The notes: generated from the letters alone by a model not told the origin. A stretch of DNA of 64,000 bases from an uncultured Candidatus Binatia bacterium (GCA_965213675.1 OZ243916.1:928001-992000), one strand, 5' to 3'; positions 5,787 to 24,444 are shown, numbered from the stretch's first letter. Numbers and translations: made by a program.

Positions 5787-6221
5787 TCAACTATGCAGCC
5801 CGTTCAAGCGCCCCTTCAGCCCCTCCCGGTCGGCAAGACTCCCGATGGAGACTCCGGCCAGGAATTCCACCAACAGCATCTGCGCCCGTTCCCACACGGA
5901 AATCTGCGTGCATACCGTGTCGTAGGGGCAGCAGTGATGATCCAGACACTCCATCAGGCTCAGTGGCTTCTCCACGGCTTCGTAGACTTCCTTGACGCTG
6001 ATGGACTCCGGAGGGCGCGCCAAGCTGAAGCCGCCCTTGCGGCCCATGTGGGACCGCACCAGCCCCGCCGCCGCGAGATCCTTCATGATCTTCGACATGT
6101 AATGCGTCGGAATGTCCTGTCGCGCGGCGATCTCCTTGCTGCCCACCACCCAACGGTGCGGCTGGGCCGCCAGATACGAAAGCGCCCGCACGGCATAGTC
6201 GACCTTCCTGCCGATATTCAT
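5787..6221 (-). CDS. Rrf2-family (IscR/SufR-like) transcriptional regulator
   Basis: DYAVRAL, GRKGGFSLARPPESISV, Cys cluster ECLDHHCCPYDTVC; heads suf operon. Confidence 0.88.
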   Translation of the reverse strand: MNIGRKVDYAVRALSYLAAQPHRWVVGSKEIAARQDIPTHYMSKIMKDLAAAGLVRSHMGRKGGFSLARPPESISVKEVYEAVEKPLSLMECLDHHCCPYDTVCTQISVWERAQMLLVEFLAGVSIGSLADREGLKGRLNGLHS

Positions 6222-6357
6222 CAGCGAGCTTCGGTCGGCCGTGACCCTGACGGAATTCACGGCGGATTCTTGCATGCTGGATCCCCTAACGAGATTGGTT
6301 CGGATCTTTGGCTCGGAACTCCTGCGAGTTCTCCCGTGCGTGGAACGTCGTGAGTCA

Positions 6358-6387
6358 AAAATAGACCTAAAGCGTCCATGTTGTCAA
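6358..6387 (-). promoter_or_regulatory. suf operon sigma70 promoter with overlapping Rrf2/IscR type-1-like operator
   Basis: Minus strand TTGACA-18-TATTTT; palindrome ATAGAC-N7-GTCCAT at 6361-6379. Confidence 0.6.
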
Positions 6388-6498
6388 ACCCCGATCCTGT
6401 CGCCCACAGGAACCGGGGGCTGCTGTGTTCAAGAAAGGCCTTGGCCGAACGGGCAACGCGGCTTGAAGGCGCCGAAATCCCCATGCTACCAAGGCCGC

Positions 6499-7032
6499 AT
6501 GGCCATTCTCAAGGTCGCCCGCCTAGGCAATCCCGTGCTGCGCAGGCCGGCCCGCGCGGTTCCCGCTGAAATCGTGGGAAAGGCAGATTTCCAGCGTTTC
6601 ATCGACGACATGGTCGTCACCATGCGCGAGTACCAGGGGGTAGGCCTCGCCGCGGTCCAGGTCCACGAATCCATGCAGGTGGCGGTTTTGGAAGTGGCGG
6701 ACAACGCCCGTTACCCCGGCAAGGACGCCGTGCCCCTGTCCGTCCTCGTCAACCCCGAGATCGTACCGCTGGATGACGAAACGGAAGACGATTGGGAAGG
6801 ATGCCTGAGCATTCCCGAGATCCGCGGCCGGGTGCCCCGCTACAAGCGCCTGCGGGTGACCGCGCTGGACCGCGAGGGCCATGCACTCGACTTCGTCGCC
6901 GAGGATTTCCACGCGCGCGTCATCCAGCACGAGGTGGACCACCTGCGCGGCCAAGTCTACATGGACCGCATGCCCGATCTCACGACGCTGACCTACCTCA
7001 CCGAGTTGGCACGGTATTGGACGGAAAGGTAA
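6499..7032 (+). CDS. def: Peptide deformylase
   Basis: GVGLAAVQ, EGCLS, QHEVDHL motifs. Confidence 0.95.
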   Translation: MAILKVARLGNPVLRRPARAVPAEIVGKADFQRFIDDMVVTMREYQGVGLAAVQVHESMQVAVLEVADNARYPGKDAVPLSVLVNPEIVPLDDETEDDWEGCLSIPEIRGRVPRYKRLRVTALDREGHALDFVAEDFHARVIQHEVDHLRGQVYMDRMPDLTTLTYLTELARYWTER

Positions 7033-7223
7033 GGGTGTTTTTGGCCCCTTGACACGTCGGCACTGACGGATGAGTTTACGATTGTCGGGTGCCCTTCATG
7101 GGCTCCATATGCTTCGCCCAGCCTGACATCACCTTCGCCTCATCCGCCTCTCCCCTTCTCATCCGCCCATGCCTTCCTCGCTGCTCCAACCAAGTGGGAC
7201 CACCTCAGCCACCTCCTATGCTC

Positions 7224-10200
7224 TCATCCGCGCCCATCCAAAACACTTCTCAACGTCTCCGTCTCCAGAAAATCATCCTCACCCTCGGCCACGAACTCCG
7301 GCGCCTTGAACAACGGATTGCCCGGTGACCAAAGCTCCACGCTTTCGGTGTGCTGCTCGTAGTATGCGGGGTCGGTGGTAACCCGCAGGCGTTTGGGCAT
7401 ACCCGGCGCGAGGAGGCTATATTCCCGCGTCCCCATGGTCTCGACCTCGACGCCCGGAGGCATCAAGGCCAGACAGGAAATGACGCGGTCCAGGTCTTCC
7501 ATGAGCACGGGGGACGGCGATCGTTGCGGCATGGTGAGGTCCTCGGTCAGGGCGGCGTCCAGGTCGAAGCCGCCGCGTTCCGCGTCGCTCGCCTGTTGTT
7601 CGATGGCTTCCACGACCTCCACGCGTCCTCGTTCTCGTCCAGAGAGCACCGTGTCGGCGATTGCACCCGGAAGCTGCGCCAGAATCGGTTGCAGGCGCCC
7701 CACTACCGTTTCGAACAGCCCAATGCGTTTACGCAGCGCGCGGTAGACGTCGGTCTCGACCGTGCCTTCGTAATGCAGATTGATGATCCGGATCACCGGA
7801 TAGTGCTGCCCGAGTCGGTCGATACGGCCAATGCGCTGCTCCACACGCATGGGGTTCCACGGCATGTCATAGTTCACCAACGCGCCGCAGAACTGAAAGT
7901 TCAACCCCTCGGCAGCAGCGTCCGTGCAGAGCAGCAGGTCTGCCTCACCGTCTCGGAAACGGCGCTTGGCGTCGTCCCGGCCGATGCGGCGCCAAGCGCC
8001 ATCGGTCCCAGGGAACTCGCCGCCGCGACCCGAGAAGCACAGCAGCCGCAGATTCGGATCCTGTCCGAGTTCCTCGCGAAGAAAATCCATGGTGTCGGTG
8101 TACTGGGTGAACACCATGATCTGCCGGTAGCCATCGGCGCGCAACGAGTCGAGGGCTTGCCTTAGACTGGCGAGCTTGCTGTCCGGCGGAAGACGGCGGA
8201 TGCTATCGAGCAGGCCTTGGATGTCGTCGGTTTCTTCCGCGGCCAGCACGTGCTGCTCCATGGCGACCATTTCTTCCGTGTCCGGTGCTTCGTCGAGCGT
8301 TTCGTCGTCCGGCGCGTCCTCGTCCAGCGTGGTCAACGTGCGGCCTACGGTGACGGCGTCCAGATGCCGCTGGAGCGTGCTGCCAAGTGCGCGGAAGCTG
8401 CTCGCCAAGCGGCGGCGATAGATGGTCATCACGAAGCCCACGGCGTTTCGCTCGGCCGCCGCTGCCTGATTGTAGGTTCCCGAGATGTAATCTTCCACCG
8501 CTTCGTAGAGAGCGCGCTCGCCAGCGCTCATCTTCACGAAATGATCTTCGACCCGGCGGTCGGCGATGGAGGTCGTCAGGGTTCCAGCCTTGAAGTAACG
8601 GCGCAACAACTCCCGCGTATGCCGTGAAACCAACTGCCGAATCGGGGTGTGCGCCTGCACGATCCTTACGGCCGCCTGGCGCTCTAACGTCTCCAACTGC
8701 CTGCGTGGAATGCTGGAACTGTCACGCAACGCTCGGAGAACCTTGTTGGCCTTGAGGCGCGATAGGTCGGCGAGGCCTTGCGCGTCCTCCGTCGTGACAG
8801 CACCGTAGCGATGCTCGACAGCCCGGAACAGACGCGCCATGCGCTCCGTGGCCTCGGGCGATGGGCTCGGCTGCTCCAGATCATCGAAGAAACGGAGGAA
8901 TGCTTCCGCAGTCCATTCCGGCGGAAGACCCAGGAGATCCAGCAGATCCCAGACTTCCACCGGATGTACCTGCATGGGAGTCGCGGTGAGCAGCACCAGG
9001 CCCTGAGTGCGCTCCTTCAACCCGCGCATGAGCCGAAGCAGGGCGTTCGGCCCGCCTTCGCTCTGGCTTCCCGCTCCGCGACGGCGGGCGTGGTGCGCCT
9101 CATCGAGCACCACGAGATCCCACGACTCTGCTTCCGTCAGCAGCGCCTCGGCGCGGTCGTGTCGCCGCATGAGCTGGCTCGACACGATCACCGCCGGCTC
9201 CTCGTGCCAGTCGGCATGGCCGACGTCACGCTCGTGGCGGCCGCGCTGTGCCGGCGACGGATACCAAGTGAGCTTGCGTCCGTCGTAGATGGGCCAGTTG
9301 AGGTTGAATTTCTCGCGTAGCTCGATTTGCCATTGCCTGAGCACGGCCTTGGGCGCGAGGATGAGAATCCGCTGCGCGCGTCCCGCAAGCCATGCCTGCC
9401 GCAGCAACAATCCCGCCTGGATGGTCTTGCCAAGCCCCACCTCGTCGGCAATCAGGAGTTTCGGCGGCCAATTTCCGTAAAGGCGCTCGAACGCGCGTAT
9501 CTGATGCGGCCACGGCGTGACCGCCGCGGTGGCCTCGCCGACGCGCGCACCGCCGCCGGGAAGGGTCGGGGCGCGCCGGATGAAAGCCCACACGAGCGTT
9601 CGCAAGTCGGCCGTTGAGACTATCGGTGGTTCAGGCCTTGGGCGGGCGGCTGACGGTGTATCCGTCTTCCCTTCCACCACTCCCTTCAATCGTTCCGGCA
9701 GCGCATCGGCGGAGGGCAGGAAGCGCAGCAGGTCGCTCCGTACCGCATCCGGCACGTCCAGCACGGAAAGGCGCGGAGTGCGGTTGGCCCAGATGCGCGC
9801 GAAGTTCGTCTCCTCAGCCACCACCCGCTCGGGTTGCGGTCCCCAACTCGTGTAGACGTTGATGCTCTCCCAGTTGGTGCGCCAGCCGGCGGCGGTCTCG
9901 TTCAGGCTGCCATTCCAAGCTATCTTCTCGCCCGTACGGTCCTCGATGACGCCAGCCTTCTCGTGGAAGATGCCGTCATCACTGACCGGCTTTCCGTTCG
10001 CGTCGCAAGGCACTGCTACCTTCACGTCGAGATGGCCGCGGGCGACCATCCAGGCCAGCAGCTCGAGAGCACCGGAAGCTCCCGCGTCCGGGGGCGCCAG
10101 GGGCAAGTCCGCCAGACGCTGCTCAACCCGTGCCCGCAACGCCTCGCCCCGCTCGATGGCCTCAATCTCGGGCGGGGCCAACGTACAGCCGACGATGAGC

Positions 10201-10388
10201 CGCATGCGCCCGCGGTTGCGCACCAGCCCCTCGATGCCGCGCGCCACCAGCGCGAGAGCTCCAGCATTGAAGTAGCCGGTCAGGCGGTCGTAACGCTCGG
10301 CGTCTTCCAGAGCCGGAACGTAGAAGAGCCGGACGAGGTCGCCGTCGTCCGGCGTGTACTTGAGCTTCCAATTGCGGTCCCGAAGCAT
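7224..10388 (-). CDS. SNF2-family helicase with N-terminal PLD-like nuclease domain
   Basis: FHEKAGVIED...GSLNET (HKD-like); LIADEVGLGKT, DEAHH, LLTATP, QRIGRIDR. Confidence 0.88.
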   Translation of the reverse strand: MLRDRNWKLKYTPDDGDLVRLFYVPALEDAERYDRLTGYFNAGALALVARGIEGLVRNRGRMRLIVGCTLAPPEIEAIERGEALRARVEQRLADLPLAPPDAGASGALELLAWMVARGHLDVKVAVPCDANGKPVSDDGIFHEKAGVIEDRTGEKIAWNGSLNETAAGWRTNWESINVYTSWGPQPERVVAEETNFARIWANRTPRLSVLDVPDAVRSDLLRFLPSADALPERLKGVVEGKTDTPSAARPRPEPPIVSTADLRTLVWAFIRRAPTLPGGGARVGEATAAVTPWPHQIRAFERLYGNWPPKLLIADEVGLGKTIQAGLLLRQAWLAGRAQRILILAPKAVLRQWQIELREKFNLNWPIYDGRKLTWYPSPAQRGRHERDVGHADWHEEPAVIVSSQLMRRHDRAEALLTEAESWDLVVLDEAHHARRRGAGSQSEGGPNALLRLMRGLKERTQGLVLLTATPMQVHPVEVWDLLDLLGLPPEWTAEAFLRFFDDLEQPSPSPEATERMARLFRAVEHRYGAVTTEDAQGLADLSRLKANKVLRALRDSSSIPRRQLETLERQAAVRIVQAHTPIRQLVSRHTRELLRRYFKAGTLTTSIADRRVEDHFVKMSAGERALYEAVEDYISGTYNQAAAAERNAVGFVMTIYRRRLASSFRALGSTLQRHLDAVTVGRTLTTLDEDAPDDETLDEAPDTEEMVAMEQHVLAAEETDDIQGLLDSIRRLPPDSKLASLRQALDSLRADGYRQIMVFTQYTDTMDFLREELGQDPNLRLLCFSGRGGEFPGTDGAWRRIGRDDAKRRFRDGEADLLLCTDAAAEGLNFQFCGALVNYDMPWNPMRVEQRIGRIDRLGQHYPVIRIINLHYEGTVETDVYRALRKRIGLFETVVGRLQPILAQLPGAIADTVLSGRERGRVEVVEAIEQQASDAERGGFDLDAALTEDLTMPQRSPSPVLMEDLDRVISCLALMPPGVEVETMGTREYSLLAPGMPKRLRVTTDPAYYEQHTESVELWSPGNPLFKAPEFVAEGEDDFLETETLRSVLDGRG

Positions 10389-12804
10389 GACTCAGCTATC
10401 GTCGTCCTGCCACAGCTTCAACTGCTCGGGCTCGTCGATGCGGTCGCTGTAGGCGAGCCGGGAGAGGTTGTAGAGCGTCTCGAAGTCCGTACCCGATGCC
10501 GCGGCCTCCCCCGTGAGATCGATTCCGGTGAAGGCGCGAGAGACGGGTAGCACCTCCAGCACAGCCTCCAGGGAAGCGAAGAAGCGCGTGTCCTTGTCCG
10601 CGAGTGTCGTAGCGAGCAACTCGCGCGCCGCGTCCAGGGACCGAAGGCGCGCCAGGTTGGCCGCGTGATGGATCGCGTCGATCATGCTTCGGGAGCCGTC
10701 AGCCGGACCGAGCGCCCCCTTGGCGGCTCGCCGTGCGCTGTCCCAGAGCCGGATGTCACTCCCCTTCTTCTCCGCAAGCCGGCCCACCACGTCCGTATCG
10801 AGATCGACGCCCACGGCCCGCGCCAGCCTGAGCGCCTCGTCGTACGAGAACACGGGCGCCTTGAAGGCATCCCATGCCAGAACGAAGAACGCCGTCGCGG
10901 GATCGAGATCGGCGTTGGCCTTGAGATGGGTCAACTGCTCCAGACGCCAGCGCTTGACCTCCCGCCGGGCGACCCCGAGGGCATCCTCCGGCGTGGCCTC
11001 GTAGGGGTCCCATTCCTCCTCGACAAGCACGTGCTGACGCCGTCGGCGGCGTTCCGCGGGAAGCTCGCGCGGCGTGCCCCGCTTGATCGGCCAGTGGCGG
11101 GAGAACTCCTCCAGCGCCGGCCCGAACGAAGCAAGGTAGAGATCGACCCCGGCAATGCCCGCCTCCTGGAACTCCCGCACCCGGGACCGCACCGCGGACG
11201 CAACCCGCGGCTCCACGTCCTCCCAGTAAAGCTCCGGCTCGTCTCTCACCAGAAACGGATCACGGACGCGCGGGCGGCACACCAGAAAGATGGTGCTGTT
11301 GGCCGCCGCCTTGTCCTTGATGTGCAGGCTCCCTTCCGCCTCCGTATTGATGGGCCAGGAGGCCGTGATGACGAAGCCCGCTTCGATCAACCCTTTGGTG
11401 AGGGCGTCCCAGGCTCCCGTGGCCTTGTGGGTGAACATCAGGGTCATGATGCCGTCGGGCTTCAGCACCCGGCGGCACTCCGCGAAGATCGCCGCCATGC
11501 GCTCCTGGTAGTCCTGACCGGCGAGCGCCCGCGCCCCTTTCTCTCCCTGAAACTTGGCCGGATTGGCTACCGCCTCGTTCTCCTTGTCGGTAAGCTGGCG
11601 GCGGAACAGCTCGGGAAAGACGTGCCCGGCCGTGCGCTTCAGCCAAACATAGAAGAAATCCGAAAGCTCCGCGTACATCACATTGTCGCAGTACGGGGGG
11701 TCCATAACCACGGCATCGATGGATGCGTCGCGGATGTGGTCAAGGCTATCGCCCGGCTTGCAGGTGATGGTGACAGGGGGCGGTTGCGAAATCTCGGCGG
11801 CGTCTTCAGGAACCCTATCGAAGAGATCAGGGCTGGCAGCAGTGACTCGGGCATCTGGACGAACGAGAGCGACGAGTTCGCCGATGCACTTGGCGGTCTG
11901 CTTGATGGCCCAGTCATATCCAAGGCCGGTAATCAACGGCGCCATCTCAGCATACGACCACTTGAACGAGAAATCATGCCGGTCGAAAGTATTGACCATC
12001 ACCTCGCGATTCGCGTGCCAACGGGTCATCCTGGAATTGTAGTCACGCAGCTTGTCCAGGGCCAGTGCAAGATACCCATAAGCCGCCTTCCGAACTTCGT
12101 CGAGCCGGCCCGCAGTTCGATCCTCGTCGAGCATTTCCCGGAAGAGTTCTACGCTCGTGCCGTGGCAAAGGAGTTGGCGAGGCGAGAACAGGTCACGCCA
12201 CATGCCCATACCATAGCGCTGCGGTTCGGTAGTCTTGTTCCCTTCGGGGACTCTCTCCCCCGGCACGATATCGAAAGCTTCCCACTCAGCCAATTTCTCG
12301 TCGAGCCGCGCCCGGATCTCCACGCCGTTGTCGTCCTCGGGACGCGGCGCGCGGTAGCCGCGCACCCACTTCACTCGAATTTGTCCCGTCTTGGTCTCGT
12401 ATTCGATCCGTTTCTTGTACACGACGGCGTAAAGCTGCTCGCCCATCCTCCCAACCTGCGCCTGAGCCTTGATGGTGTCACCGTCGATGATTCGCTGACA
12501 GTCCGGATAGGGGCAGTCACCCGTCCCGCGTGACACCGTACCTAGCGACTGCTCTGCGGCATTTCCCACAATTTCGAACCAGCACACACGCCCCCTCGAC
12601 CCTGGTCCGGCACCAAGTCCGGGCTTCAACCGGACGCCGGTCCCGTCGGGTGCCAGCCGCCAGTTGGGCGACAACGGAACCAGACCTTCGCAGTATGGAC
12701 AAGTGACGGTTCGAGCCCAGAGATAGGTTACATCGATTCGTTCCGGGAGGCCCCTTTGTGGGAACAATACGCCGAGACAGTCTTCGATCTGCCTGCGCCA
12801 CCTA

Positions 12805-14102
12805 GCAGGCCGTGGAAAAACGCCTAGATTTGAGCGTTTGTGAGTGATTCGATGGAAAATCCGGCTTCAGGGCATCGAGATAGACTTGTTTCACCGGCCA
12901 TTTCAGGCCAGCGGGCGCGGCGCAGACGCACTGAGGCCATGGACGCATGCTCAACCCCCGACTCCCAAGGTGCGCAGTCGTACCAGGTTGTAGGCGGCGA
13001 AGGTGAGGGTAAACTGGAAGTCGACCTTGGCCAAGCCCCGGTGCTTGAGTTTGCGCATGCCTCCGATGGTCTTGGCCCAGCCGAAGCCTTCCTCGATCCG
13101 TTTGCGGATGCGCTGGCTCACTGCGTAACCACCGTGACGGGTGGTGCGCCGGTCAATGGCGGAACGCCGGTGGGTATCGTTCTGGGCCACATGCGGACTG
13201 ACGTTGGCGCAGCGCAGTCCCTCCACAAAGTCTTTTGTATCGTATCCCTTGTCTGCCCCGAGGGTGAGCCGATCCGTGCCGGGACGCGCCGTCATCATCG
13301 CCAGGCCCGCCTCGCGCTCAGCCCGTCCGCCGGCTTCGGTGGTACGGGTATCGACGATCAGTCCATGGCGGTTATCCATCAACGCATGGCCCAGGTAGCA
13401 CAGCTTCGCTTCCTGCCCTTGGCCCTTGCGGTACAGCCGTGCCTGTGGATCGGTGCCCGACTGGTGGGTCGCATTGCTGCGCTTCTCGCCGTGGAAGTCC
13501 GCCTCGGCGTTGCGTCCACCGCCACCGCGCCGTCCGCCTCCATCTTTCGGCCGGAACGACTTCATCGACGCCCACGCCTCCAGCAACGTCCCGTCCACGC
13601 TGAAGTGTTCATCCGACAAAAGGCGTCCTTCACGGGCCTGACCCAGCACTTGCCCAAAAAAGGCCCGCGCGATGTCCGACCCGATCAACCGCTCCCGGTT
13701 CTTGGTGAACGTCGAGTGGTCCCACACCGGATCGTCCATCGACAGTCCCACAAACCACCTGAACAGCAAGTTGTAGTCCAGTTGCTCCACCAACAACCGT
13801 TCGCTACGGATCGAGTAAAGTACCTGAAGCAGCAACGCCCGCAGCAACTGCTCCGGCGCGATCGAAGGCCGCCCCGTGTGCGAGTACATCTCCTCAAACT
13901 CCCGCGTCAGTCCTTCAAGCGCCCTGTTCACCATTTTCCGTATCGCTCGCAACGGATGGTCCGCTGGCACTCGCGCCTCCGGCGACACATAACTGAACAT
14001 CCCTTCCTGACGCGGATCTGTTCCTCTCATCGTTTACTCCCTGTCCTTACGAATAGGATACTTACTGTTATCCGCGTCAGGCGGAGTTTTTCAACAACCT
14101 GC
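12805..14102 (-). mobile_element. IS5-family insertion sequence (~1.3 kb)
   Basis: Terminal inverted repeats GCAGGCCGTGGAAAAAC / GCAGGTTGTTGAAAAAC (14/17); TA (or CTA) duplicated at 12803-12804 and 14103-14104. Confidence 0.92.
12951..14030 (-). CDS. IS5-family DDE transposase
   Basis: VPADHPLR, GRPSIAPE, SVDGT, GADKGYD, RKRIEEGFGWAK; intact 359 aa. Confidence 0.93.
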   Translation of the reverse strand: MRGTDPRQEGMFSYVSPEARVPADHPLRAIRKMVNRALEGLTREFEEMYSHTGRPSIAPEQLLRALLLQVLYSIRSERLLVEQLDYNLLFRWFVGLSMDDPVWDHSTFTKNRERLIGSDIARAFFGQVLGQAREGRLLSDEHFSVDGTLLEAWASMKSFRPKDGGGRRGGGGRNAEADFHGEKRSNATHQSGTDPQARLYRKGQGQEAKLCYLGHALMDNRHGLIVDTRTTEAGGRAEREAGLAMMTARPGTDRLTLGADKGYDTKDFVEGLRCANVSPHVAQNDTHRRSAIDRRTTRHGGYAVSQRIRKRIEEGFGWAKTIGGMRKLKHRGLAKVDFQFTLTFAAYNLVRLRTLGVGG

Positions 14103-14650
14103 TAATGGCCAACCTGTAAAACTCTACCTCAATCTCATGAGTGTAGGCTGACGGCCACTCAACCGTCGCCTTGGTGATCAGAGTAGCGACAGGATTAAGG
14201 TCGTTGGCAAGTGGCGTCAAGGTCATGCGCATCGTTTCGAACGGAATACTGCCTCCGCCGGCGGTCGGATCAAGGACTGTACAGTCCTCTGTGGTACGCT
14301 TGATCGTCGCCCTAATCCATCCGATGTCGCGGTTGGTCAAGACGTGTTTGAACGCCCGAACATAGCCGTAGGGATCAGCCACGCGAACTCCAGTCCTGCG
14401 TGCGCGATCTATCGCATGTCGTGCAGCGATCGGGTCCCCGTGTATCCCGAGAACATGCAGAAACCGTTCCCGATCCGCGTCTGCCGGTAAGAGCGACGCC
14501 AGCACCGCCGCCCGTGACGCCACCAGCGGACGCCGCGCCCACCACACGTGGAGCCGGTTCGGAGCCGGGAACGGCGTCATCGGCGTCCGTTCTCGCAGGC
14601 TCTCCTCGCCGATTTCTGCTATCGGCAACCACCGCTCAATCAGGCGTGTG

Positions 14651-17530
14651 TTAGCCATCCTTCTGATCCGTCTGCACTGACGCGTGACTCGCCAACTTCT
14701 CCCTACTCAATGCCGCCGTGCGGGCCTCTTTCAACTTCACCAGATCCCGGCGGATATCCTGAGCGACTTCCTCGACCTCCTGTGCCACCCCGGGTTCAAG
14801 CCCGATCTCCCGCTCCAGGGCCGTAACGAGCGGCAATAGGAGCTTCACCGACGGTGACGCCTGAATGAGTTCGCGCATGTGCACCGGCCCAAGCTCAACG
14901 CTCAAATACATCAGTGCATCAAGAGCCTCATACGGGAGAGCTCCGATCTTCTGCAACAGCGCAAGAACGGTTTCGATGTCGAGTTCGCTTGCAGATCGTT
15001 TGCCGTCGGCAAGAGTCGCCTTGGCCCGAATCAGATGACCACGGACACGCCTCGCCAGTGATTCCGGTCCGAGTGCAGATAGAGCCCGACCCGCCGTCTC
15101 GACCGCTGCCTCATACCGCAGGCATTTGAACTCCATACCGGCTTTTCGAAGAAGCGCTTCCCCCATCCATTCACCGGGCACGGCAGACGCGTCTCTTGCA
15201 ATTCGGTGAACCGCCTCGTCAAAGGCAGCGAGTGCGTCCCGGAGCCGGCCCACTCGGTCGAGTATTGCACCCTTGACAACAAGGGCCTGTGTAACCCACC
15301 CGAAGACATCCCCGTTCTGACTCTCCCCAAAACGACGAACTGCCCCGTCCCAGACGGCCAACGCATCTTCGTGTCGGTTCATATCAACCAGTACATCTCC
15401 TTTGTTGAAGAGAGCCTTGGCTACTACCTCAGCAACAGTTGGGTCCTCACTCTCCGCGAAGCGACGAACTACCTCCTCCCAAGTGGCCACGGCATCCTGA
15501 GGCCTGTGCAATTCACGCAGTGCACACCCCTTGTTGAAGAGGGTCTTCGCTACCCACCCAAGAATTTCTGGATTGTTGTTCTGGCCGAAGAAATGCAGCA
15601 TCTCGTCACAGGCGGCCAGTCCGTCCTGCGGCCGATTCAATCGAGCGAACAGAGCCCCTTTGTTGACGAAGGCAATCGCTACTTGCTCAAGAAGAGTTTG
15701 ATTTTCACTCTGTCCGAACCGGAGTAACAAGTCATCCCATGCAGCCAGTGCGTCCTCCGGCCGATTCAATCTGTCGAGTGCATCTCCTTTGTAGACGATG
15801 ACATTCGCCACCAGTTCAAGAAGGGCCGTGTTAGTGCTCTGCCCAAAGCGACTGACGACCTCTTCCAGGGCGTCCAACGCATCTTGGAACTGGTTCATTC
15901 CGCCGAGTATCATCCCTTTGTAGAAAAGGGCCTTGGCGACCGACTCAAGAACAGCCAAGTTCTTGCTCTGCCCGAATCGACGCACCACTCCGTCGTAGGC
16001 ACATAGCGCATCCTCGGATCGGTCCATTCTGCCGAGCGTGACGCCTTTATTGAAGAGAGCCGTCGCAACCGGCTCAAGCAACGTCGGGTTCGTGCTCTCT
16101 CCGAATCGAAGCAGCAACTGGTCCCACACGGCCAGTGCGTCCGCTGCTCGATTCTGATTGTTCAGGGTAGCCGCTTTGGCGAACAGATCCATCGCTTCCT
16201 GCTTTGCCGCCTCGTCCGTACCGGCGTGAAGCGTCTGCAACTCGCCTCGGTGCTTGCTCAGCGCCGGTGACTCCAGAAACCGTGGGATGGCGATCCGGTA
16301 GAGCGACTGCATCTCCCCGTTGGAGCTTCCCGCCTCGCGGATGAGGCGAGCAACGATGTCCTTCAGTTCGGCGGGCGAGTAATATGTCTCCATGAACTGG
16401 ACAATGGCTTCGACCAAGCTACCCGGCCCGCGGGACCGTCGCATCAGGTAATAGATGTTGTACAAGCGCTCGGTCAGGTAGTACTGCTTGCGCCGAGCCG
16501 TGCCGCCCTTGACCTGAACGACCCCTCGTTCGATGAGGCGCGCGAGTTGAGCGCTGCATTTACTCGTCTCCAGCCGGGATCGATCCGCGATTTCCCTCGT
16601 GGTCGCCGGTTTCCACAATTCAGCAAGCGCAAGATAGACCCGCCGTTCCTGTGGCGGAAGCGATTCGATATGGCTTTTGAAATACTCCGTATGGTCATCG
16701 ACCAGATCGAGCAGTTCGACCATGAGTTCGCGGAAGGACCTGCCCCCGCCGAAACGGGCCACGATCGCCAACAGTCGCGGGCTTCCGCCGGTGAGGATCT
16801 CCAACGACCGAATCGTCTTGGGCGCAGGGCACCGACCGGACACCGTTTCCCAAAGAACCGCGCACTCTTTCGTGTTGAGGGGGCGCAGGGTGTGCACCCT
16901 GAAGAGATCGTAAAGTGCATGCTCCGGGTTGTCGATCTCCTCGAAACGGCTGGTGGCGCTCGCAAGCATGACGACCCGGGGCTCGGTCTGGAGGGTGTGT
17001 CTCAGCCGCCAACCCGCGTCCGGGTCCGCCATGTCCCTGAACATCATGTTGAGGTTCTCGACTATCAAAACCAGCCGTTTACCCTCCCGGTCCGAGAAGT
17101 CCAACAGGGAGGCGCGACAACGCTCAGCAAGAGTCTGGTCGTCACTATTGGTTCGCAGGTCTTCGACGGTGCGTTGCAGATCGGGACCGCCCTCTCGGCG
17201 AGGCACCTGCGCCGCCAGGCGAGACAGGCATTCGAGCCAGAACTCCCCAGCGGTGGTGACCTCGTAGCTTTCCTCTGCAAAGACGATCGGAAAGAATCGG
17301 GACGACAACCCGACATCCCTGCGCACCTCGGCCGCGATCCGCAGGAGGAGGCTCGTCTTCCCGCTGCCGCGGGCGCCGATCACGATCTGATGCGGGTTTG
17401 AGCTTCCGGTGCAATCGCGCAGCATCTCGACCATCGACTCGAACTCGACCGTCCGCACACAGAATGATTCCACCAACTCATCGTCGGTTAGGAAGCCTGG
17501 GTTGTACTTCCTAGCGACGGTCACGGCCAT
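14651..17530 (-). CDS. STAND-like P-loop NTPase + winged helix + 43-aa TPR-like repeats
   Basis: GARGSGKT, LVLIVENLN, TGGSPR, HTH region; about 7-8 repeats with 129-bp period; GGAG before ATG 17530. Confidence 0.8.
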   Translation of the reverse strand: MAVTVARKYNPGFLTDDELVESFCVRTVEFESMVEMLRDCTGSSNPHQIVIGARGSGKTSLLLRIAAEVRRDVGLSSRFFPIVFAEESYEVTTAGEFWLECLSRLAAQVPRREGGPDLQRTVEDLRTNSDDQTLAERCRASLLDFSDREGKRLVLIVENLNMMFRDMADPDAGWRLRHTLQTEPRVVMLASATSRFEEIDNPEHALYDLFRVHTLRPLNTKECAVLWETVSGRCPAPKTIRSLEILTGGSPRLLAIVARFGGGRSFRELMVELLDLVDDHTEYFKSHIESLPPQERRVYLALAELWKPATTREIADRSRLETSKCSAQLARLIERGVVQVKGGTARRKQYYLTERLYNIYYLMRRSRGPGSLVEAIVQFMETYYSPAELKDIVARLIREAGSSNGEMQSLYRIAIPRFLESPALSKHRGELQTLHAGTDEAAKQEAMDLFAKAATLNNQNRAADALAVWDQLLLRFGESTNPTLLEPVATALFNKGVTLGRMDRSEDALCAYDGVVRRFGQSKNLAVLESVAKALFYKGMILGGMNQFQDALDALEEVVSRFGQSTNTALLELVANVIVYKGDALDRLNRPEDALAAWDDLLLRFGQSENQTLLEQVAIAFVNKGALFARLNRPQDGLAACDEMLHFFGQNNNPEILGWVAKTLFNKGCALRELHRPQDAVATWEEVVRRFAESEDPTVAEVVAKALFNKGDVLVDMNRHEDALAVWDGAVRRFGESQNGDVFGWVTQALVVKGAILDRVGRLRDALAAFDEAVHRIARDASAVPGEWMGEALLRKAGMEFKCLRYEAAVETAGRALSALGPESLARRVRGHLIRAKATLADGKRSASELDIETVLALLQKIGALPYEALDALMYLSVELGPVHMRELIQASPSVKLLLPLVTALEREIGLEPGVAQEVEEVAQDIRRDLVKLKEARTAALSREKLASHASVQTDQKDG

Positions 17531-17738
17531 TGCTCCGTTGTCCGGTCGGACTCGACGCCGAACTCTCAGGACGACACCGTTCACACAGCACGACGGTCAC
17601 GCTGTTGTTATCCCCTGACACGCTAACCTGAGAGGATGCTGGAGGCGGCTGGTTTCGGGACCTCAAGTTCCGCAGAATCCACAGGCCCGCTACGCCGAGG
17701 AATCCCTCCGTCCAGAACTGGTTGATGAAATCATTCAT
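17511..17738 (-). CDS. Small hypothetical protein with short hydrophobic N-terminal segment
   Basis: 75-aa ORF directly behind a near-consensus promoter, overlapping the STAND gene start. Confidence 0.4.
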   Translation of the reverse strand: MNDFINQFWTEGFLGVAGLWILRNLRSRNQPPPASSQVSVSGDNNSVTVVLCERCRPESSASSPTGQRSNGRDRR

Positions 17739-17771
17739 GGGACATCCATGCTTCCAACAATCTCGTTGCTA

Positions 17772-17800
17772 ACGATACTGTTGGGACAATAGAATGTCAA
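17772..17800 (-). promoter_or_regulatory. sigma70 promoter for small ORF-STAND-methylase-helicase unit
   Basis: TTGACA-17 bp-TATCGT on minus strand. Confidence 0.65.
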
Positions 17801-17861
17801 GCCGTTTTTCAGTATTTCTGTTGGGAACACTCGACGCCACCCCAGAATTGCTTGTCAGAAC

Positions 17862-17899
17862 TTGTAACCCGTTACGTGACATGTGATACTCTGTCACGT
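17862..17899 (+). promoter_or_regulatory. higBA promoter with two operator palindromes
   Basis: TTGTAA-17-GATACT with TGn extension; GTAAC-CC-GTTAC and ACGTGACA-N10-TGTCACGT. Confidence 0.65.
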
Positions 17900-18176
17900 G
17901 ATTAAAGGCTTCAAGCACAAAGGGTTACAGACGTTCTTCGAGACCGGAAACAAGAAGGGTATACAGCCGAGGCACGCCAACCAGTTGAGAGATATCTTGG
18001 CTGCTCTGGACGCCGCAACATCTCCAAGGGACATGCGTGCACCCAGTTTCCGTTTGCATCTACTGGAGCCTCGTGGCGCCAATATCTGGTCGGTGTATGT
18101 CGCCAAGAACTGGAGTGTGGACTTTCGTTTCGTTAGCGGGCACGCCGAAGCAGTGAATTACGTGGATCACCATTAG
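17898..18176 (+). CDS. higB: HigB/RelE-family toxin
   Basis: MIKGFKHKGL, RLHLL, WSVYVAKNW, C-terminal VDHH; upstream of antitoxin. Confidence 0.88.
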   Translation: MIKGFKHKGLQTFFETGNKKGIQPRHANQLRDILAALDAATSPRDMRAPSFRLHLLEPRGANIWSVYVAKNWSVDFRFVSGHAEAVNYVDHH

Positions 18177-18268
18177 ACTGTGATATCTCGACAACATGAC
18201 AAAGAACTGCTTGTCGACCAGCCTCTGGTTCCGGCTACGCCAGATTGGATACAGGTCAGGAGACACTC

Positions 18269-18556
18269 ATGAGAATGCACAACCCACCTCATCCCGGCGG
18301 AGTGCTGTTTAGACAGTGGATTTCGCCTTTGGGTATCTCCATTACCCAGACTGCCAAGCACCTCGGCGTTTCCCGGAAGGCGCTTTCCGAGATCGTCAAC
18401 GAGCACACCGGGATCAGTCCCGAGATGGCGGTGAGACTCTCCATAGCCCTGGGAACCAGCTCCGAGCTATGGCTGAACATGCAGTCCAATTACGACTTGT
18501 GGCACGCCGAGCAGCGCAGGAAGGAGCTAAGGGTAGAGTCTATCATTGCAGCGTAG
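18269..18556 (+). CDS. higA: HigA-family HTH antitoxin
   Basis: [28 protein letters not shown]; AGGAGA RBS. Confidence 0.92.
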
Positions 18557-19040
18557 GGGTTCTCGGCGGCTTCGGCTCCGTCAGCAGGAAACGCAGCGCC
18601 GTCAGCACTCGGCGCGGGTGTCTGCGGTGCATGGCCATGCCGAGCCAGTAGGCTGCCTCCTCACGCCCCATGGCCTCGATGCCTTCGGCGACGGCGCGCA
18701 TGTTGTCGCGGCTTCGCATGGGAGCGAGGGTGCGGAACAGAAGGCCGAGCGTCAGGGCCAGGTCCTCAGAGACGGCATATCCCTGCTTCTGTTGGTTGCC
18801 GAGGACGGGCTTTACGCCCGCCTGTGACAGCCGCTTCAGAACCCTGTGTTCCACCAGTTGCAGGTTGCGGCCTTTCAGGCCAGCGACGCGGGCCGCTATG
18901 CTCAGGTGCGGAGTTGCGGGGCTTGGCATCTGCCAGATCTCGTACTCCGTGTCGGCGGGGCCGTGGCGTCCGATGCGAAGCTCGTAACGCGGCGCCGATT
19001 CCGGCGTGTCGATCTGGACAACCCGTTTGAGACGCGCCAT
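18543..19040 (-). CDS. Small DUF499-associated protein (DUF3780/DUF7680-like)
   Basis: TGATG coupling to DUF499 gene; C-terminal [11 protein letters not shown]...[11 protein letters not shown]; family assignment tentative. Confidence 0.65.
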
Positions 19041-22000
19041 CAGGCTCCAGCCTCCCTGGCGGTAGCCATGACGAATGCCGCGCCGCTGGCGAAGCGCGAC
19101 AATCGCTCGGTCATCTTCTCCGCGGCGTCGCCCTGCATGGGCAGTCCTTCGGTGAACGTCAATTCGAAGCCGACCTCCAAGGTCCGGGATGCGGCGTCGC
19201 GAAGCTGCGGTTCGAGAAACTCCCGAACCGGCTGGGCGTCGGACACGGGTCCCCGGAACTCCAACTCGAACGAGCCCTGGTCGCGGGTTTCGTAACCGCC
19301 GGTCAGGGTCACGAGCTTATCGGCCCCTGAAACCGCGCCCACGGCTCCGAGCAGGCGAAAGGCGTCGCCGGCTTCGAACAGGCGGATGGTGAGGACGCCG
19401 ATCTTCTCGATGTTGCGGGCGCGGGCCTGTTCCCAGAGTCTGGCCAAGGCTTCGGTCAGCAGGCCTTCGGCCGACAACCCACCGAGTGAAGGTTGCTCCT
19501 CGGGCGTTGGCTCCACGACCTGACCTCCGCCCTCGTCAATGGGCTCGACGTACTCGTTCCCTCCGCCGGGCGGCTCCGGTTGCTTTCGCGGCCAGATCCC
19601 CTTGTTTCTGGCGTAGGCCATGGTGAAGACCGCGGACTGCTCGTCGATGACGATGGTGGGCAGCGGATCGCCCGGACCGCACAACAGGTCGCCGCGCTGG
19701 TAGACGTACTCCTCCCGCTCGATGCCGCGCAGGATGCCGCGGATGAATATGTCGTCGCCGCACAGCATGGGCAGCGCGGGATCCCGGCGGAACTCCTCAC
19801 GCAAGGCCAGAGTCGTGATCTGGCCCTTGCGGAGCGGCGTACGGTCGCGCACGTAGGCGGGTGAGTTCGGCTCGTCCTCGGACATGCGTAGCTTCGGCAG
19901 GTCGCGGAGCGCCCGCACCACTTGTCGTTGTCCCGAACCCGGCCGGTCCGATGTCGATTGGACGTCGATGGCGGTGTGCGCCAGATCGACATCGCTCCCG
20001 CCGATACGGTTTCGCGACGGGTAGAACACGTGGCGGTAACACTGCTGGACGGCTATCGCCAACTCCTGCTCGGAGCGCGCTTCCAGCTCGCGGATCTTGT
20101 CCTGCTGGTGTTCGGCGAGATCCACAAGGCGCTCGGGCTTCTTGAGATCCTGCAACGCCAGCCGCCGTTGCGCCTTGCGCCGCATTTCCTCCTTGCGGGC
20201 GTCTTCCGCAGCCAGGAACACCAGATTGTTGCGCAGTGCCCGCAGGGCCGAGCCTTCCGAGCCCTTGCGGGAGTGGATGCGCGCGATCAGTTCGGGAACC
20301 CTCTCCACGGCGCTGCCGATGGCGACGCCGTCGTAGGCGAGCACGATCAGTCTTGGGCGGCCGTCGCCGACCTCGTCTGGCACGTCGAAGGGACCGCCGG
20401 GAAAGGGAATGGCCTCGAAGGCGCCGCCCGCGCCGCCGCTGAAGATACCGCGAATGCTGTCGTCCAGATGCGCGCGGGTCTCGCCGGCATCGACGTGTTG
20501 CTCCTCGCGGCGGATGATCTGGCTGAGGTTCGCTTCGGCAAGAAAGCGCATGGACGCGCCCGGCCGGTCGTCGAGATAGGCCGATTCGGCGACGAACTTT
20601 CGACGCGCCTCCTCGATGAAGCTCACGTCCGTGGCCGGCGCCAGCACCGAGTACCGCAGTTGATGAGGCGACAGGCCCTTCAGCGGGTCGTTGAAGGCCA
20701 GGCTGTGCAAAAAAATCGTGCGCGCTACATACGTGGCGTAAGGTGGCAAGCCGCGGTGATGCTCGGCGTCGATCTCCCCGGCAAGCGCCTTCTTCTCCGT
20801 ACCGGCCACGTCACTGGCGATGGCCGGCAGGTACGCCGTCTGGCCGAGACGGGTAACGATCTCCTGCCGGATCGGCTCGTAGCCGGGATCGATATGGTGG
20901 AGATGGATCGCGGCGGCGTCCGCGGGTTGCTGTTGCCACAGATGGACGATGGTGCGGGCCAGGAGCCGCAGCATGCCGCGCACGCGCTGGAAGTTGCCCA
21001 GGGTTGCAGTCTTGCCCGTCAAGGTCGCCAACACTTCGGGATGCAGCGGGTAGCTGGCGAGAAATGACTCCGTGGTCTCGGGTCGGGCGGCCTCTCTCGA
21101 CAGGGCTTCGCCGGCGGCAGTCCAAAGGTCGCGGTATGTGGCGACCACCGAAGACGCTTGGAAATCGTCAATCGATTCGAAAAGGCGGCGGCGCAACACC
21201 TGCGCCGTCTCGTCTTCTTCCGTGGGATTCAGTAGGGTAGCCTTCCGGGCGGAGACGCTTTCGGCTTCAGCCATCCGGTCGGCGATGAACTGGTTCTCCG
21301 CGCTATAGGCGTCGGTGGCGCGGCCGTCCTTACCGATAGCGAGAGTGTAGACGAGGGCCGCATTGGGCGCACCCTCCACGGCCTTGAACAAGGATGTCAG
21401 GAAAGCCGTCAACTGGTCGTGGGCATCATCGAATTGCCGTACCTTACGCAGGTATACCGAAAGCTCGTCTAGCAGGATCAGGACAGGCTCGCCCCCGAAC
21501 AGTTCCCGCAAAGTTTCCGCTCCCGGCGCGACCTGGTGCTCGTCGCTGTTGCGGACCCGTTCGTATCCTTCCCGTCCGGCGAGAGCGTAGGCGATCTCGC
21601 CCCAAGGTGTGCAAGCCAGTACGCCGTCACCCATCGCCCGCCCATTGGCCGGGTCCGCGTTCTCCCCATCAAACGCGGCAACGCGGACGGGGCCTTGCGG
21701 CAGCAGATCAGGTTCGACGAACTCCGCGGCGTTGGGCACGTTCGCCATGCCACGGGCTGCGTGCGCAAGCGCGATCAGGCCGTGGGTCTTGCCGCCACCG
21801 TATGAGGTGTCGAGTCGAAAGATCGCGGCGACCTCGCCACCCGAACCGCTCAAGCGCCGACATACATTGGCCAGAAGGTTCTTGATACCCCGTGTGGGCC
21901 ACGTATGGGCAAAGAACCTCACGGGGTCCAAGTACTCGGCGCTGCCTTCTCCGACGATGACCTGAGCCAAGTCGGCCGCGAAATCCGCTTCAGCAATGGC

Positions 22001-22057
22001 TCCCTTGAGAACGTCCTCCCGAGGACTACATGTATCGAATATCGTCGGGACCGTCAT
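19040..22057 (-). CDS. DUF499-family AAA+ ATPase (BrxC/PglY-related)
   Basis: DFAADL, TSYGGGKTH Walker A, ILLDEL Walker B, LRRRLF, SYPLHPE, FQRVRGMLRLL. Confidence 0.87.
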   Translation of the reverse strand: MTVPTIFDTCSPREDVLKGAIAEADFAADLAQVIVGEGSAEYLDPVRFFAHTWPTRGIKNLLANVCRRLSGSGGEVAAIFRLDTSYGGGKTHGLIALAHAARGMANVPNAAEFVEPDLLPQGPVRVAAFDGENADPANGRAMGDGVLACTPWGEIAYALAGREGYERVRNSDEHQVAPGAETLRELFGGEPVLILLDELSVYLRKVRQFDDAHDQLTAFLTSLFKAVEGAPNAALVYTLAIGKDGRATDAYSAENQFIADRMAEAESVSARKATLLNPTEEDETAQVLRRRLFESIDDFQASSVVATYRDLWTAAGEALSREAARPETTESFLASYPLHPEVLATLTGKTATLGNFQRVRGMLRLLARTIVHLWQQQPADAAAIHLHHIDPGYEPIRQEIVTRLGQTAYLPAIASDVAGTEKKALAGEIDAEHHRGLPPYATYVARTIFLHSLAFNDPLKGLSPHQLRYSVLAPATDVSFIEEARRKFVAESAYLDDRPGASMRFLAEANLSQIIRREEQHVDAGETRAHLDDSIRGIFSGGAGGAFEAIPFPGGPFDVPDEVGDGRPRLIVLAYDGVAIGSAVERVPELIARIHSRKGSEGSALRALRNNLVFLAAEDARKEEMRRKAQRRLALQDLKKPERLVDLAEHQQDKIRELEARSEQELAIAVQQCYRHVFYPSRNRIGGSDVDLAHTAIDVQSTSDRPGSGQRQVVRALRDLPKLRMSEDEPNSPAYVRDRTPLRKGQITTLALREEFRRDPALPMLCGDDIFIRGILRGIEREEYVYQRGDLLCGPGDPLPTIVIDEQSAVFTMAYARNKGIWPRKQPEPPGGGNEYVEPIDEGGGQVVEPTPEEQPSLGGLSAEGLLTEALARLWEQARARNIEKIGVLTIRLFEAGDAFRLLGAVGAVSGADKLVTLTGGYETRDQGSFELEFRGPVSDAQPVREFLEPQLRDAASRTLEVGFELTFTEGLPMQGDAAEKMTERLSRFASGAAFVMATAREAGA

Positions 22058-22377
22058 GGCTATGCTGTCCCCTCCTTCCCTCGTCGCCGGCCGCGTTTTG
22101 GTCTGTTGGGCGCGCGAGTAGGTCCTAGTGCGACCACTGCAGGTCCAAGACCACCTCAGCGTATCCTCCCTCAGTCCGTGGAATACACCTTGGCAACCTG
22201 TCCGATTCTCCGGGACCACCTCACCATGCACTGGAGTACAATATCAACGACCTGCCGGTGTACTTGTACACCGACTGAAGGTAGCCCCGCCGTACACCGT
22301 CAAAGTCTGGCCCGGAACCGCTTGGCGCGCGGCTCGCATGGAGTTCTTTCAGAATCGCGCCCCAAGTAGGCAAGGCG

Positions 22378-22557
22378 TCATCCCGAGTTGGTGGAGTTGG
22401 AAGTGCGGGAAACCTGGGGGTTCGTGAGGGATACGTTTGCTGCCACGTCTATTTCTTCAGCGCGCATATAGAGTTCGATGGATTCGGTCACTCCGGCCTC
22501 TTTCGAGGTCGGTATAACATTCATCTCTACGCGACCTTTTGGTACCGGATCGGCCAT
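22378..22557 (-). CDS. 59-aa hypothetical protein or gene remnant
   Basis: GGAGGT 5 nt before ATG 22557; MADPVPKGRVEMNVIP... Confidence 0.4.
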   Translation of the reverse strand: MADPVPKGRVEMNVIPTSKEAGVTESIELYMRAEEIDVAANVSLTNPQVSRTSNSTNSG

Positions 22558-22643
22558 TGCCCACCTCCGAAGGACCTCTTTATGCATGCGCGGAAAGACT
22601 GCCGCAAGCCGGCGTTCGGCACGCCGCGAGTTCCCAGCCTCGT

Positions 22644-24440: not shown

Positions 24441-24444
24441 GTGT

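Follow-up and report, generated by a model that had tools for sequence, protein, structure and literature searches.

A Type-2-like Hma operon with a DUF7680 component, two probable guest elements and an interrupted methylase gene in a Candidatus Binatia genome

The subject of this report is a 15.6-kb island located between the def and aspS genes in a 64,000-nucleotide (nt) stretch of DNA (hereafter, the window) from an uncultured Candidatus Binatia bacterium (GCA_965213675.1, OZ243916.1:928001-992000). Judged by the sequences of its proteins, the core of the island is a helicase-methylase-ATPase (Hma) system, in another nomenclature a DUF499-centred bacteriophage exclusion (BREX)-related (BR) system, which has a Type-2-like build and contains a DUF7680 protein. 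The explanation that best accounts for the whole locus is that the operon was acquired horizontally, that two independent guests, a HigBA toxin-antitoxin pair and a gene coding for a signal transduction ATPase with numerous domains (STAND) and tetratricopeptide repeats (TPR), reside between its core genes, and that the methylase gene was recently split by an insertion sequence (IS). We put the probability of this explanation, as one joint figure that includes horizontal acquisition, at roughly 0.75.

Core proteins of the operon and its insertion site

Open reading frame (ORF) and Pfam calls place all large genes of the island on the minus strand. The most upstream of them codes for a 1005-amino-acid (aa) AAA+ ATPase (19040-22057; the longest ORF reaches 22231, and the most likely start is the ATG at 22057). 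It matches Pfam DUF499 with an E-value of 1.1e-34 and, in the 2023 release of the PADLOC models, HmaC (PDLC00662; 4e-97, with an alignment that starts at residue 68 of the long ORF and extends to residue 760) and DUF499 (1.9e-42). Walker A (GGGKTH, residues 86-91) and Walker B (LLDE, around residues 195-199) motifs are present. A TGATG junction at 19042-19038 joins the ATPase gene to that of the DUF7680 protein (165 aa; 18543-19040, minus), a core gene between ATPase and methylase.

The methylase is encoded in two parts. The N-terminal part (14105-14658, minus; ORF 14077-14658) matches Pfam DUF1156 (3.1e-17) and PADLOC HmaB (1.2e-22) and contains the S-adenosylmethionine (SAM)-binding motif I, DPTAGGGS. 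The C-terminal part (10392-12802, minus) matches HmaB (4.6e-50) and DUF1156_MTase (2e-28) and carries a catalytic DPPY motif of the N6-adenine/N4 type at residue 356 of a 791-aa ORF, which occupies positions 10392-12767, the frame being open up to the IS at 12802. A PADLOC match of the methylase to PglX|PglXI was also obtained (1.4e-19). An intact homologue, found in a related locus (L002:12545-15502), is 985 aa long. The STAND gene that precedes the methylase gene overlaps it by 8 nt (14651-14658), and a 3-nt gap (10389-10391) separates the methylase from the last gene of the operon, the presumed restriction effector. This is a 1054-aa protein (7224-10388, minus) with Pfam domains PLDc_2, SNF2-rel_dom, Helicase_C and ResIII. 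The phospholipase D (PLD) domain occupies residues 137-200 and contains a single HxK motif (H142, K144) followed by GSLN; the SNF2 part begins around residue 290, with DEAH at 429. Among the best 25 of the 44 PADLOC families matched by this protein, BrxHI|BrxHII (3e-76), PLD_Helicase (1.7e-71), PbeA (3.6e-69, residues 2-435) and HmaA (7.3e-59) are found; the BrxH, PLD_Helicase, PbeA and DrmD models all outscore HmaA.

Thus, the five large co-oriented genes with tight junctions described in the initial annotation are real, as are all three junctions, and the domain calls (DUF499; DUF7680; AAA_16, winged helix-turn-helix (HTH) and TPR; DUF1156; DDE transposase; SNF2, Helicase_C and PLDc_2) are borne out. 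Two amendments were needed: HigBA is encoded on the plus strand, against the direction of the operon, and an IS occupying 12803-14104 interrupts the methylase gene.

Payne et al. introduced Hma in 2021 (PMC8565338) as a candidate system of helicase, methylase and ATPase that is present in 26 phyla, and a 2026 survey by Rakesh and Krishnan (PMC12839542) renamed such systems DUF499-centred BR systems and divided them into three types. Type-2 BR systems are described there (section 30) as having an HKD endonuclease at the N-terminus of a Swi2/Snf2 protein and, in 98% of taxa, a small standalone DUF3780 protein. The window contains an HmaC-type ATPase, an HmaB-type methylase (interrupted by the IS) and an HmaA-type helicase in the same operon, with guests between the core genes. 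It also shares with Type-2 BR systems the DUF499 ATPase, the DUF1156-type N6 methylase, the Swi2/Snf2 helicase with an HKD domain fused to its N-terminus and, in the interval between the ATPase and methylase genes, a gene for a small standalone alpha+beta protein. This small protein, however, is DUF7680, standing where DUF3780 normally stands, and it represents a fourth conserved core gene outside the three-gene definition of Hma. The N-terminal PLD/HKD domain also sets the window helicase apart from the HmaA protein of a Type-1 system from Halomonas, which has a C-terminal PD-(D/E)xK nuclease and protects against phage T4 (PMC11232893). The composite was initially not recognised as a characterised system; its core turns out to be the named Hma system, equivalent to DUF499-centred BR systems.

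The initial assignment as a BREX-related, methylation-linked system with a PLD-helicase effector is supported by the domain and PADLOC matches. The ATPase, methylase and helicase are homologous, according to PMC12839542, to those of Type-3 BREX (BrxC, PglXI, BrxHII, PglZ and others), from which the window differs by the lack of PglZ and by a nuclease that is a PLD domain fused to the helicase. PglZ, BrxL, BrxA and BrxB are all absent from the PADLOC matches listed for the island proteins, with the limit given above for the helicase, and a Pfam search of the genome (97.7% complete) did not reveal PglZ, with two control genomes positive. The system is therefore BREX-related rather than BREX, in line with the earlier view that the absence of PglZ and BrxL excludes a canonical BREX locus. 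The helicase also resembles PbeA of the DndCDEA-PbeABCD system (Xiong et al. 2019, PMC6459918), a modification-dependent antiviral effector built from PLD and ResIII/helicase parts; Pbe, however, works with phosphorothioation and an AAA_23-type PbeC, whereas the window has a DUF1156 methylase and a DUF499 ATPase.

According to the published model for this class of systems, the methylase would mark host DNA, the DUF499 ATPase together with the small protein would scan DNA and recognise unmarked molecules, and the PLD-SNF2 protein would translocate on invading DNA and restrict it.

The island is flanked by def (ORF 6241-7032, plus; Pfam Pep_deformylase) and aspS (22644-24668, minus). In 10 of the 11 genomes of the same genus that were examined, def and aspS are ca. 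20-1400 nt apart, and homology of the window to these congeners stops at about 7192 and restarts at about 22223-22380. The 15.6 kb found here is therefore an insertion, and it consists of the operon alone. The claim that the genes had been inserted between def and aspS is thus confirmed both by the flanking genes and by their spacing in congeners. A tRNA gene, sought as an insertion mark, was not found within positions 1-30000, no integrase accompanies the island, whose sole mobility gene is the IS, and no Rfam family reached its gathering score within 6000-23500. No def or aspS homologue was present in any of the 30 STAND loci and 80 DUF7680 loci described below, so the island was not seen at this site elsewhere. 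The def-aspS spacer itself differs among congeners (ca. 20 nt to 1.4 kb), and one genome has no aspS within 1.5 kb. Two segments of the spacer that flank the island, 7045-7192 (A) and 22380-22571 (B), adjoin each other in the opposite order in one further locus (L125; def - B - A - aspS).

The DUF7680 protein

A metagenome scan anchored on DUF7680 yielded at least 296 confirmed stretches, and nearly all of the best 80 have an HmaC-like gene directly upstream. The locus counts given below for DUF7680 refer to these best 80 of 296 stretches, of which 74 were informative and 6 were too short; in two alignments, rows containing a stop codon were left out. In a 401-genome sample of the phylum to which the window belongs, 7 genomes contained DUF7680 and 13 contained DUF3780; in the genome of the window itself, no DUF3780 was found.

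DUF3780 occupies the same position as DUF7680, directly upstream of the DUF1156-type methylase gene. AlphaFold models of both proteins were compared (E, strand; H, helix). The DUF7680 model (pLDDT 88.4) consists of E18-27, E30-38, E50-56, H57-73, E86-90, H92-105, H111-122, H126-138 and H142-154, and that of DUF3780 (pLDDT 79.6) of E15-20, E28-33, E46-52, H54-74, E85-89, H91-104, H109-121, H124-137 and H147-156. The order of elements, E-E-E-H-E-H-H-H-H, is identical and the boundaries are nearly alike. This order agrees with the four-stranded sheet backed by five helices by which DUF3780 is described in PMC12839542. Thus, gene position and the predicted order of secondary structure elements link DUF7680 to DUF3780, without detectable sequence similarity between the two. 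Foldseek and VIA-align revealed no convincing solved relative of DUF7680.

DUF7680 is named in no paper of the literature searched, and it does not occur in the text of PMC12839542, whose supplementary tables may list such loci under Type-2. The four-gene Hma/BR subtype that bears DUF7680 is widespread and appears not to have been described. Twenty-two longer DUF7680 proteins were considered as fused forms and were set aside: most are single-member clusters, and they look like read-through into DUF499, DUF1156 or PtuA. None of the 22 contains a reader-domain fusion of the kind reported for DUF3780.

Two further arrangements were observed. In six loci (L059, L062, L071, L076, L082 and L086), which form one supported clade of the HmaC tree, the methylase and PLD-helicase genes are located upstream of, and divergent from, the ATPase-DUF7680 genes. 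In the genome of the window, a lone and apparently frameshifted DUF7680 fragment (G000:C1:2859611-2859945; L043:9627-9941) has no ATPase, methylase or helicase gene nearby; a 230-aa ORF comes next, and then a pair of genes, for a 202-aa protein and a metallo-beta-lactamase, that is also embedded in the Hma operon of locus L004. Its appearance is that of a guest cassette that stayed when the Hma system around it was lost.

Guest genes between DUF7680 and the methylase gene

In 45 of the 80 DUF7680 loci, the methylase gene begins within 200 nt of the DUF7680 gene, and in 6 the methylase and helicase genes are divergent and lie upstream of the ATPase gene. The gap exceeds 200 nt in 11 loci, while 12 more have 700 nt or more of other content after DUF7680. 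Guests are therefore present in no fewer than 23 of the 74 informative loci. These include Septu PtuAB (L027, L030, L017 and L049; PADLOC E-values of 6.7e-118 and 2.4e-51 in L027), NsnBC (L014 and L030; 3.6e-100 and 3.9e-108 in L014), the metallo-beta-lactamase pair (L004) and an M78-HTH plus DUF4411 pair (L040). We conclude that the interval between DUF7680 and the methylase gene is a slot for guest genes. Such embedding fits the published Hma pattern: 62.7% of 1,485 Hma systems hold embedded genes, among which Septu is commonest (bioRxiv 10.1101/2024.01.29.577857, section 5), and insertions are reported in 66.5% of hma systems (PMC11232893, section 18). Seven of nine embedded candidates that were tested provide defence (bioRxiv 10.1101/2024.01.29.577857, section 6). 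By the figures in these sections, extra defence-type genes inside Hma operons are the norm, which likewise tells against an unrecognised composite.

The slot of the window holds two guests. One is the STAND-TPR gene, whose product (977 aa; 14651-17584, minus; probable start ATG at 17530) matches Pfam AAA_16 (2e-9), TrmB/winged HTH (1.3e-6) and many TPR families, with a Walker A motif GARGSGKTS. It contains about eight TPR-type repeats of 43 aa, six of which were located by motif; the repeats are visible in the protein only, as Tandem Repeats Finder detected no DNA-level repeat in the gene. More than 3,000 homologues were found, for which 'tetratricopeptide repeat protein' is the sole source name; the best 120 are 943-1589 aa long, and among the loci analysed the length varies from 667 to 1745 aa. 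Regular 43-aa units in variable number are as expected of a sensor array. Like the Avs/AVAST proteins, which belong to the STAND proteins that resemble nucleotide-binding leucine-rich-repeat (NLR) receptors, the window protein consists of a P-loop NTPase, then a winged helix, and at the C-terminus a TPR array of variable length. Unlike them, it has no effector domain recognised by Pfam at either terminus, no Avs model is among its PADLOC matches, none of which is better than 1.5e-4, and its family is ancestrally paired with a second, smaller ATPase. A 75-aa ORF upstream of the STAND gene (17511-17738) was rejected as a gene, as it belongs to no Pfam family and matches only the DNA of the window itself.

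When genomes were scanned with the STAND protein, 30 loci with 47-72% identity were retrieved, spread over seven or more labels at phylum or class level. The STAND gene is directly preceded in 28 of them by a gene of the same orientation that codes for a 418-460-aa ATPase; one of the other two has a divergent partial match and one has none. This partner (ca. 430 aa) resembles ATPase_2/AAA_16 P-loop proteins and has Walker A and B motifs. It matches no PADLOC family better than 1e-4 and only generic 'ATP-binding / archaeal ATPase' clusters in the ESM Atlas. Neither protein has an NCBIfam name, and no match in the PDB was obtained by sequence for the STAND protein (E<=0.01) or for its partner (E<=1). 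The pair lies between DUF7680 and the methylase gene in 6 of the 30 loci (L002, L004, L005, L014, L020 and L027) and beside Hma genes in two more (L017 and L030). In the remaining 22 there is no intact Hma gene within 9 kb, and 8 of these keep Hma remnants at the edges of the cassette. Persistence of an intact pair after loss of Hma suggests that it can function independently. In L023 and L025, the pair is followed by Septu.

The remnants have a consistent placement. C-terminal DUF7680 fragments of 16-29 residues are found just upstream of the partner ATPase gene in L008 (7543-7629), L018 (7559-7606), L023 (7594-7677), L025 (7575-7658) and L029 (6014-6061), and in L028 (7238-7303) such a fragment precedes an intervening HigA gene; E-values for these six range from 1e-10 to 2e-3. 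Fragments of the methylase gene directly follow STAND in L001 and L010. These arrangements suggest an exchange of cassettes through recombination, for which the conserved ends of the adjoining core genes would serve. Such remnants of core genes at cassette edges outside Hma appear to be undescribed, and they provide a testable clue to the traffic of guests in Hma operons. When L027 (5438-5533) and L030 (5441-5602) are added, the fragments upstream of guest cassettes number eight; all are in-frame, 16-54 residues long and 52-86% identical, and they precede either the ATPase and STAND genes or Septu, both inside and outside Hma. Two gene calls in the protein database (P0136 and P0141) join a DUF7680 fragment to PtuA.

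In the window, no homologue of the partner ATPase was detected, and with this query none was found in the genome, where the STAND gene is single-copy. The window would thus retain one half of a widespread two-gene cassette. One candidate remnant in the window spacer was discarded, since it is a match of 17 residues to the start of an ORF in L001 (E 0.006 in a tiny database); no other match of the spacer to the partner reached E<=0.01. Two metagenomic loci, L045 and L046, have the layout of the window, DUF7680 - HigA - HigB - STAND - methylase, likewise without the partner ATPase, and can be aligned colinearly with it for 1.8 kb (81% DNA identity). In the comparison of the window with L045, ratios of nonsynonymous to synonymous substitution rates (dN/dS) were 0.21 for STAND, 0.17 for HigB, 0.14 for HigA, 0.12 for DUF7680 and 0.08 for HmaC, with dS of about 0.33-0.65. 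As these ratios are well below 1, the lone STAND gene and the toxin-antitoxin pair are maintained by selection and are not drifting.

The history of the STAND gene within Hma was examined on a quick IQ-TREE tree (LG+G4) of the C-terminal ca. 465 residues of HmaC. It was drawn from 89 candidate loci and the window; 70 rows had a high-scoring segment pair of at least 400 aa, and 66 of them had an informative slot state. The 12 STAND-positive rows all belong to a single clade (23 rows; SH-aLRT 98), and the 43 rows outside it include none. Nine of the 12 had been fetched by STAND similarity, so their share in the clade is inflated; the confinement to one clade does not come from that sampling. Within the clade, STAND invariably directly precedes the methylase gene, other guests (Septu, Nsn, the metallo-beta-lactamase pair and HigBA) being located upstream of the ATPase and STAND genes, and in the window, L002, L027 and L045 the STAND stop codon and the methylase start overlap. 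We conclude that the cassette is an old, tightly fitted resident of one Hma subclade. Most likely, it is also an autonomous NLR-like candidate for a defence system, with the variable TPR array as a putative sensor. Its embedding in Hma operons makes the two-ATPase cassette a candidate for defence ('guilt-by-embedding'); the cassette appears to be undescribed, the 2023 PADLOC models do not include it, and a large unnamed family stands behind it.

L003 (12237-18857), L017 (12117-13832) and L020 (13159-14358) contain a second, diverged STAND paralogue, which is encoded on the other strand and arranged tail to tail with the first one. In L003, it is part of a complete second ATPase and STAND pair, with a STAND protein of 1745 aa.

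The second guest of the window is HigBA. The HigB-like RelE-family toxin (97 aa; 17883-18176, plus) matches Pfam HigB-like_toxin (PF05015) at 3.8e-20 and 72.6 bits (cut-off 27), and the HigA antitoxin (103 aa, HTH; 18245-18556, plus) matches TIGR02607 at 3.4e-33 and 113.3 bits (cut-off 47.7), as well as HTH_3. The toxin gene is upstream of the antitoxin gene, as is usual for HigBA type II pairs, and the two are 68 nt apart. Unlike an ordinary pair, this one sits inside a defence operon on the opposite strand, and no PADLOC model matches HigB. HigA is convergent with DUF7680 and overlaps its 3' end by 14 nt. The spacer between HigB and STAND contains divergent promoter-like sites (17766-17800, both strands), the best sigma-70-like matches being 10/12 on the minus strand (17800-17772) and 9/12 on the plus strand (17766-17795); these are matches to the consensus only. 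An imperfect inverted repeat, CACGTGACA ... TGTCACGT (17860-17925), spans the start of HigB near the plus-strand promoter-like site and may be a HigA operator.

Among the fetched loci, HigB homologues are limited to L045 and L046 (84% identity), while HigA homologues with 82-91% identity are present in L001, L002, L028, L045 and L046. In L002, L001, L028 and L044, a HigA homologue (71-86% identical) precedes the ATPase and STAND genes without HigB. When L002 and window DNA are aligned, the match runs through HigA, skips the coding part of HigB and resumes at the HigB start and promoter region. The simplest history is that an ancestor had HigBA together with the ATPase and STAND pair, and that one branch then lost the toxin gene and the other the ATPase gene. 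This history speaks for two independent guests. HigBA had originally been counted as part of the system; its separate fate in L002, where HigA and the promoter region were kept and the coding part of HigB was lost, is that of an independent guest.

IS insertion in the methylase gene and alternative explanations

The IS (12803-14104, minus) encodes a transposase (12951-14030) with Pfam domains DUF772 and DDE_Tnp_1 that matches NCBIfam transpos_IS5_4 (NF033581) with 299.5 bits (cut-off 140). Imperfect terminal inverted repeats of 22 nt (12803-12824 and 14083-14104) bound the element, and TA/TAG flanks both ends. Excision of 1297 nt restores a single open methylase frame of 989 codons, compared to 977-1060 aa in intact homologues. 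The genome contains the element in five further places, all in G000:C1: a second copy that is 100% identical, three copies with 93-95% identity and one partial copy. The identity of the second copy indicates a recent insertion by an active IS family. In four sequencing runs of one sample, which is probably the source sample, contigs span each IS junction over 27-28 nt, and no IS-free joint was seen, although rare variants are possible; loose contig ends at 12801-12802 and 14101-14108 mark other copies of the IS. These four were the runs listed as containing the sequence, and no RNA run was among them.

With the IS between its SAM-binding motif and DPPY, the methylase must be inactive, and the Hma part is probably off at present. 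The IS is probably also polar on the helicase gene, since the latter starts 3 nt after the methylase gene. In BREX-type systems, the methylase is needed for restriction as well. The active IS5-family element would thus abolish methylation and probably restriction too; either polarity or dependence of restriction on the methylase would explain why loss of the methylase is tolerated. The split methylase may be viewed as a natural example of a system being switched off.

The split gene, the missing partner ATPase of STAND and the lone DUF7680 fragment elsewhere in the genome, which shows that such systems decay in this lineage, could also mean that the whole island is a dead remnant, with every part heading for loss. 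We regard this as very unlikely: no other reading frame is disrupted and the catalytic motifs are preserved, the methylase frame has no further interruption over its 989 codons, the perfect identity of the two IS copies marks the hit as recent, and dN/dS is well below 1.

Several observations weigh against the explanation we favour, that of an acquired Type-2-like Hma operon with two independent guests. The anti-phage trio of NCBIfam equivalogs NF042962-4 is matched far below the cut-offs: the ATPase matches DUF499_antiphage with 2.1e-63, yet with 215 bits against a cut-off of 1200, the intact methylase homologue of L002 scores 209 bits with the DUF1156 model (cut-off 1000), and the helicase scores 363 bits with phospholipD_antiphage (cut-off 1100). 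The system is therefore a divergent relative of the set that these models describe. DUF3780 was not detected in the DUF7680 protein by Pfam at E-values up to 10, and an hhalign comparison of 41 DUF7680 with 13 DUF3780 sequences was not significant (probability ca. 1%, E 0.057). The mechanism outlined above for a PLD-type (Type-2-like) system would follow from domain content and analogy. The two-ATPase cassette is a candidate for defence; only some of its non-Hma neighbours are defence genes (3 of 10 scanned match PADLOC: TmtA, PDC-S01 and Type III REase). Finally, the confinement of STAND to a single HmaC clade and its overlap with the methylase start could mean functional integration into Hma.

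This last point argues for a different view of the STAND-TPR protein, as an integral infection sensor of one Hma subclade that, ancestrally together with its ATPase, would gate methylation or restriction, much as the BrxB-type STAND of BREX or the inactive STAND (iSTAND) of Type-3 BR might. The cassette occurs in 12 of the 23 rows of the subclade, its position next to the methylase and downstream of all other guests is constant, and purifying selection on STAND persists after loss of the partner in loci that still carry Hma genes; in L045, the ATPase, DUF7680 and the methylase start are present, and the contig stops before any helicase. Section 33 of PMC12839542 describes BREX-related systems that recruited STAND modules. 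On the other hand, ATPase and STAND are intact without a nearby Hma gene in 22 of 30 loci, 8 of them with Hma scars; at least 3-4 changes of state, as losses or replacements, are needed within the subclade, where sampling by STAND similarity has inflated the share of positives; and 45 of the 74 informative DUF7680-type loci are without any guest. We therefore consider an integral sensor quite unlikely. The 'built-in STAND' of the initial annotation is not supported: the gene is absent from 71 of the 74 loci (present in 3), it occurs intact without Hma, and its partner is missing in the window. What remains of the idea is the restriction to one subclade and the shared overlapping junction with the methylase gene. 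A related and bolder proposal is that the STAND protein, ancestrally with the ca. 430-aa ATPase, is an undescribed NLR-like module lacking a recognisable effector, entered one Hma subclade once, became coupled translationally to the methylase as an infection sensor that would license Hma, can survive and work alone after loss of Hma with short DUF7680 and methylase pieces as scars, and travels as a cassette by recombination. Unlikely as it is in our judgement, it would, if true, make this protein the active-STAND counterpart of the inactive STAND components of BREX and show by what route guests pass between Hma operons.

It could further be supposed that, in the lineage of the window, STAND-TPR and HigBA form one sensor-toxin unit, in which the RelE-type toxin replaced the partner ATPase as the output and would be released on infection. 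The ATPase-less layout is common to the window, L045 and L046, all three genes have dN/dS of 0.14-0.21, and the promoter-like sites diverge from a common spacer. These three loci are, however, close relatives (HmaC 90% identical) and may represent a single event. L002 kept HigA, the HigB promoter region and the complete ATPase and STAND pair when the coding part of HigB was lost, no HigA or HigB homologue (E<=1e-5) is present in 26 of the 30 STAND loci, and by family models HigBA is a complete, ordinary type II pair. A sensor-toxin unit is thus hardly to be expected, and two independent guests account better for these data. At the relaxed threshold of E<=0.05, one further locus, L016, contains a lone 53-aa HTH match with 32% identity, 5 kb from the cassette.

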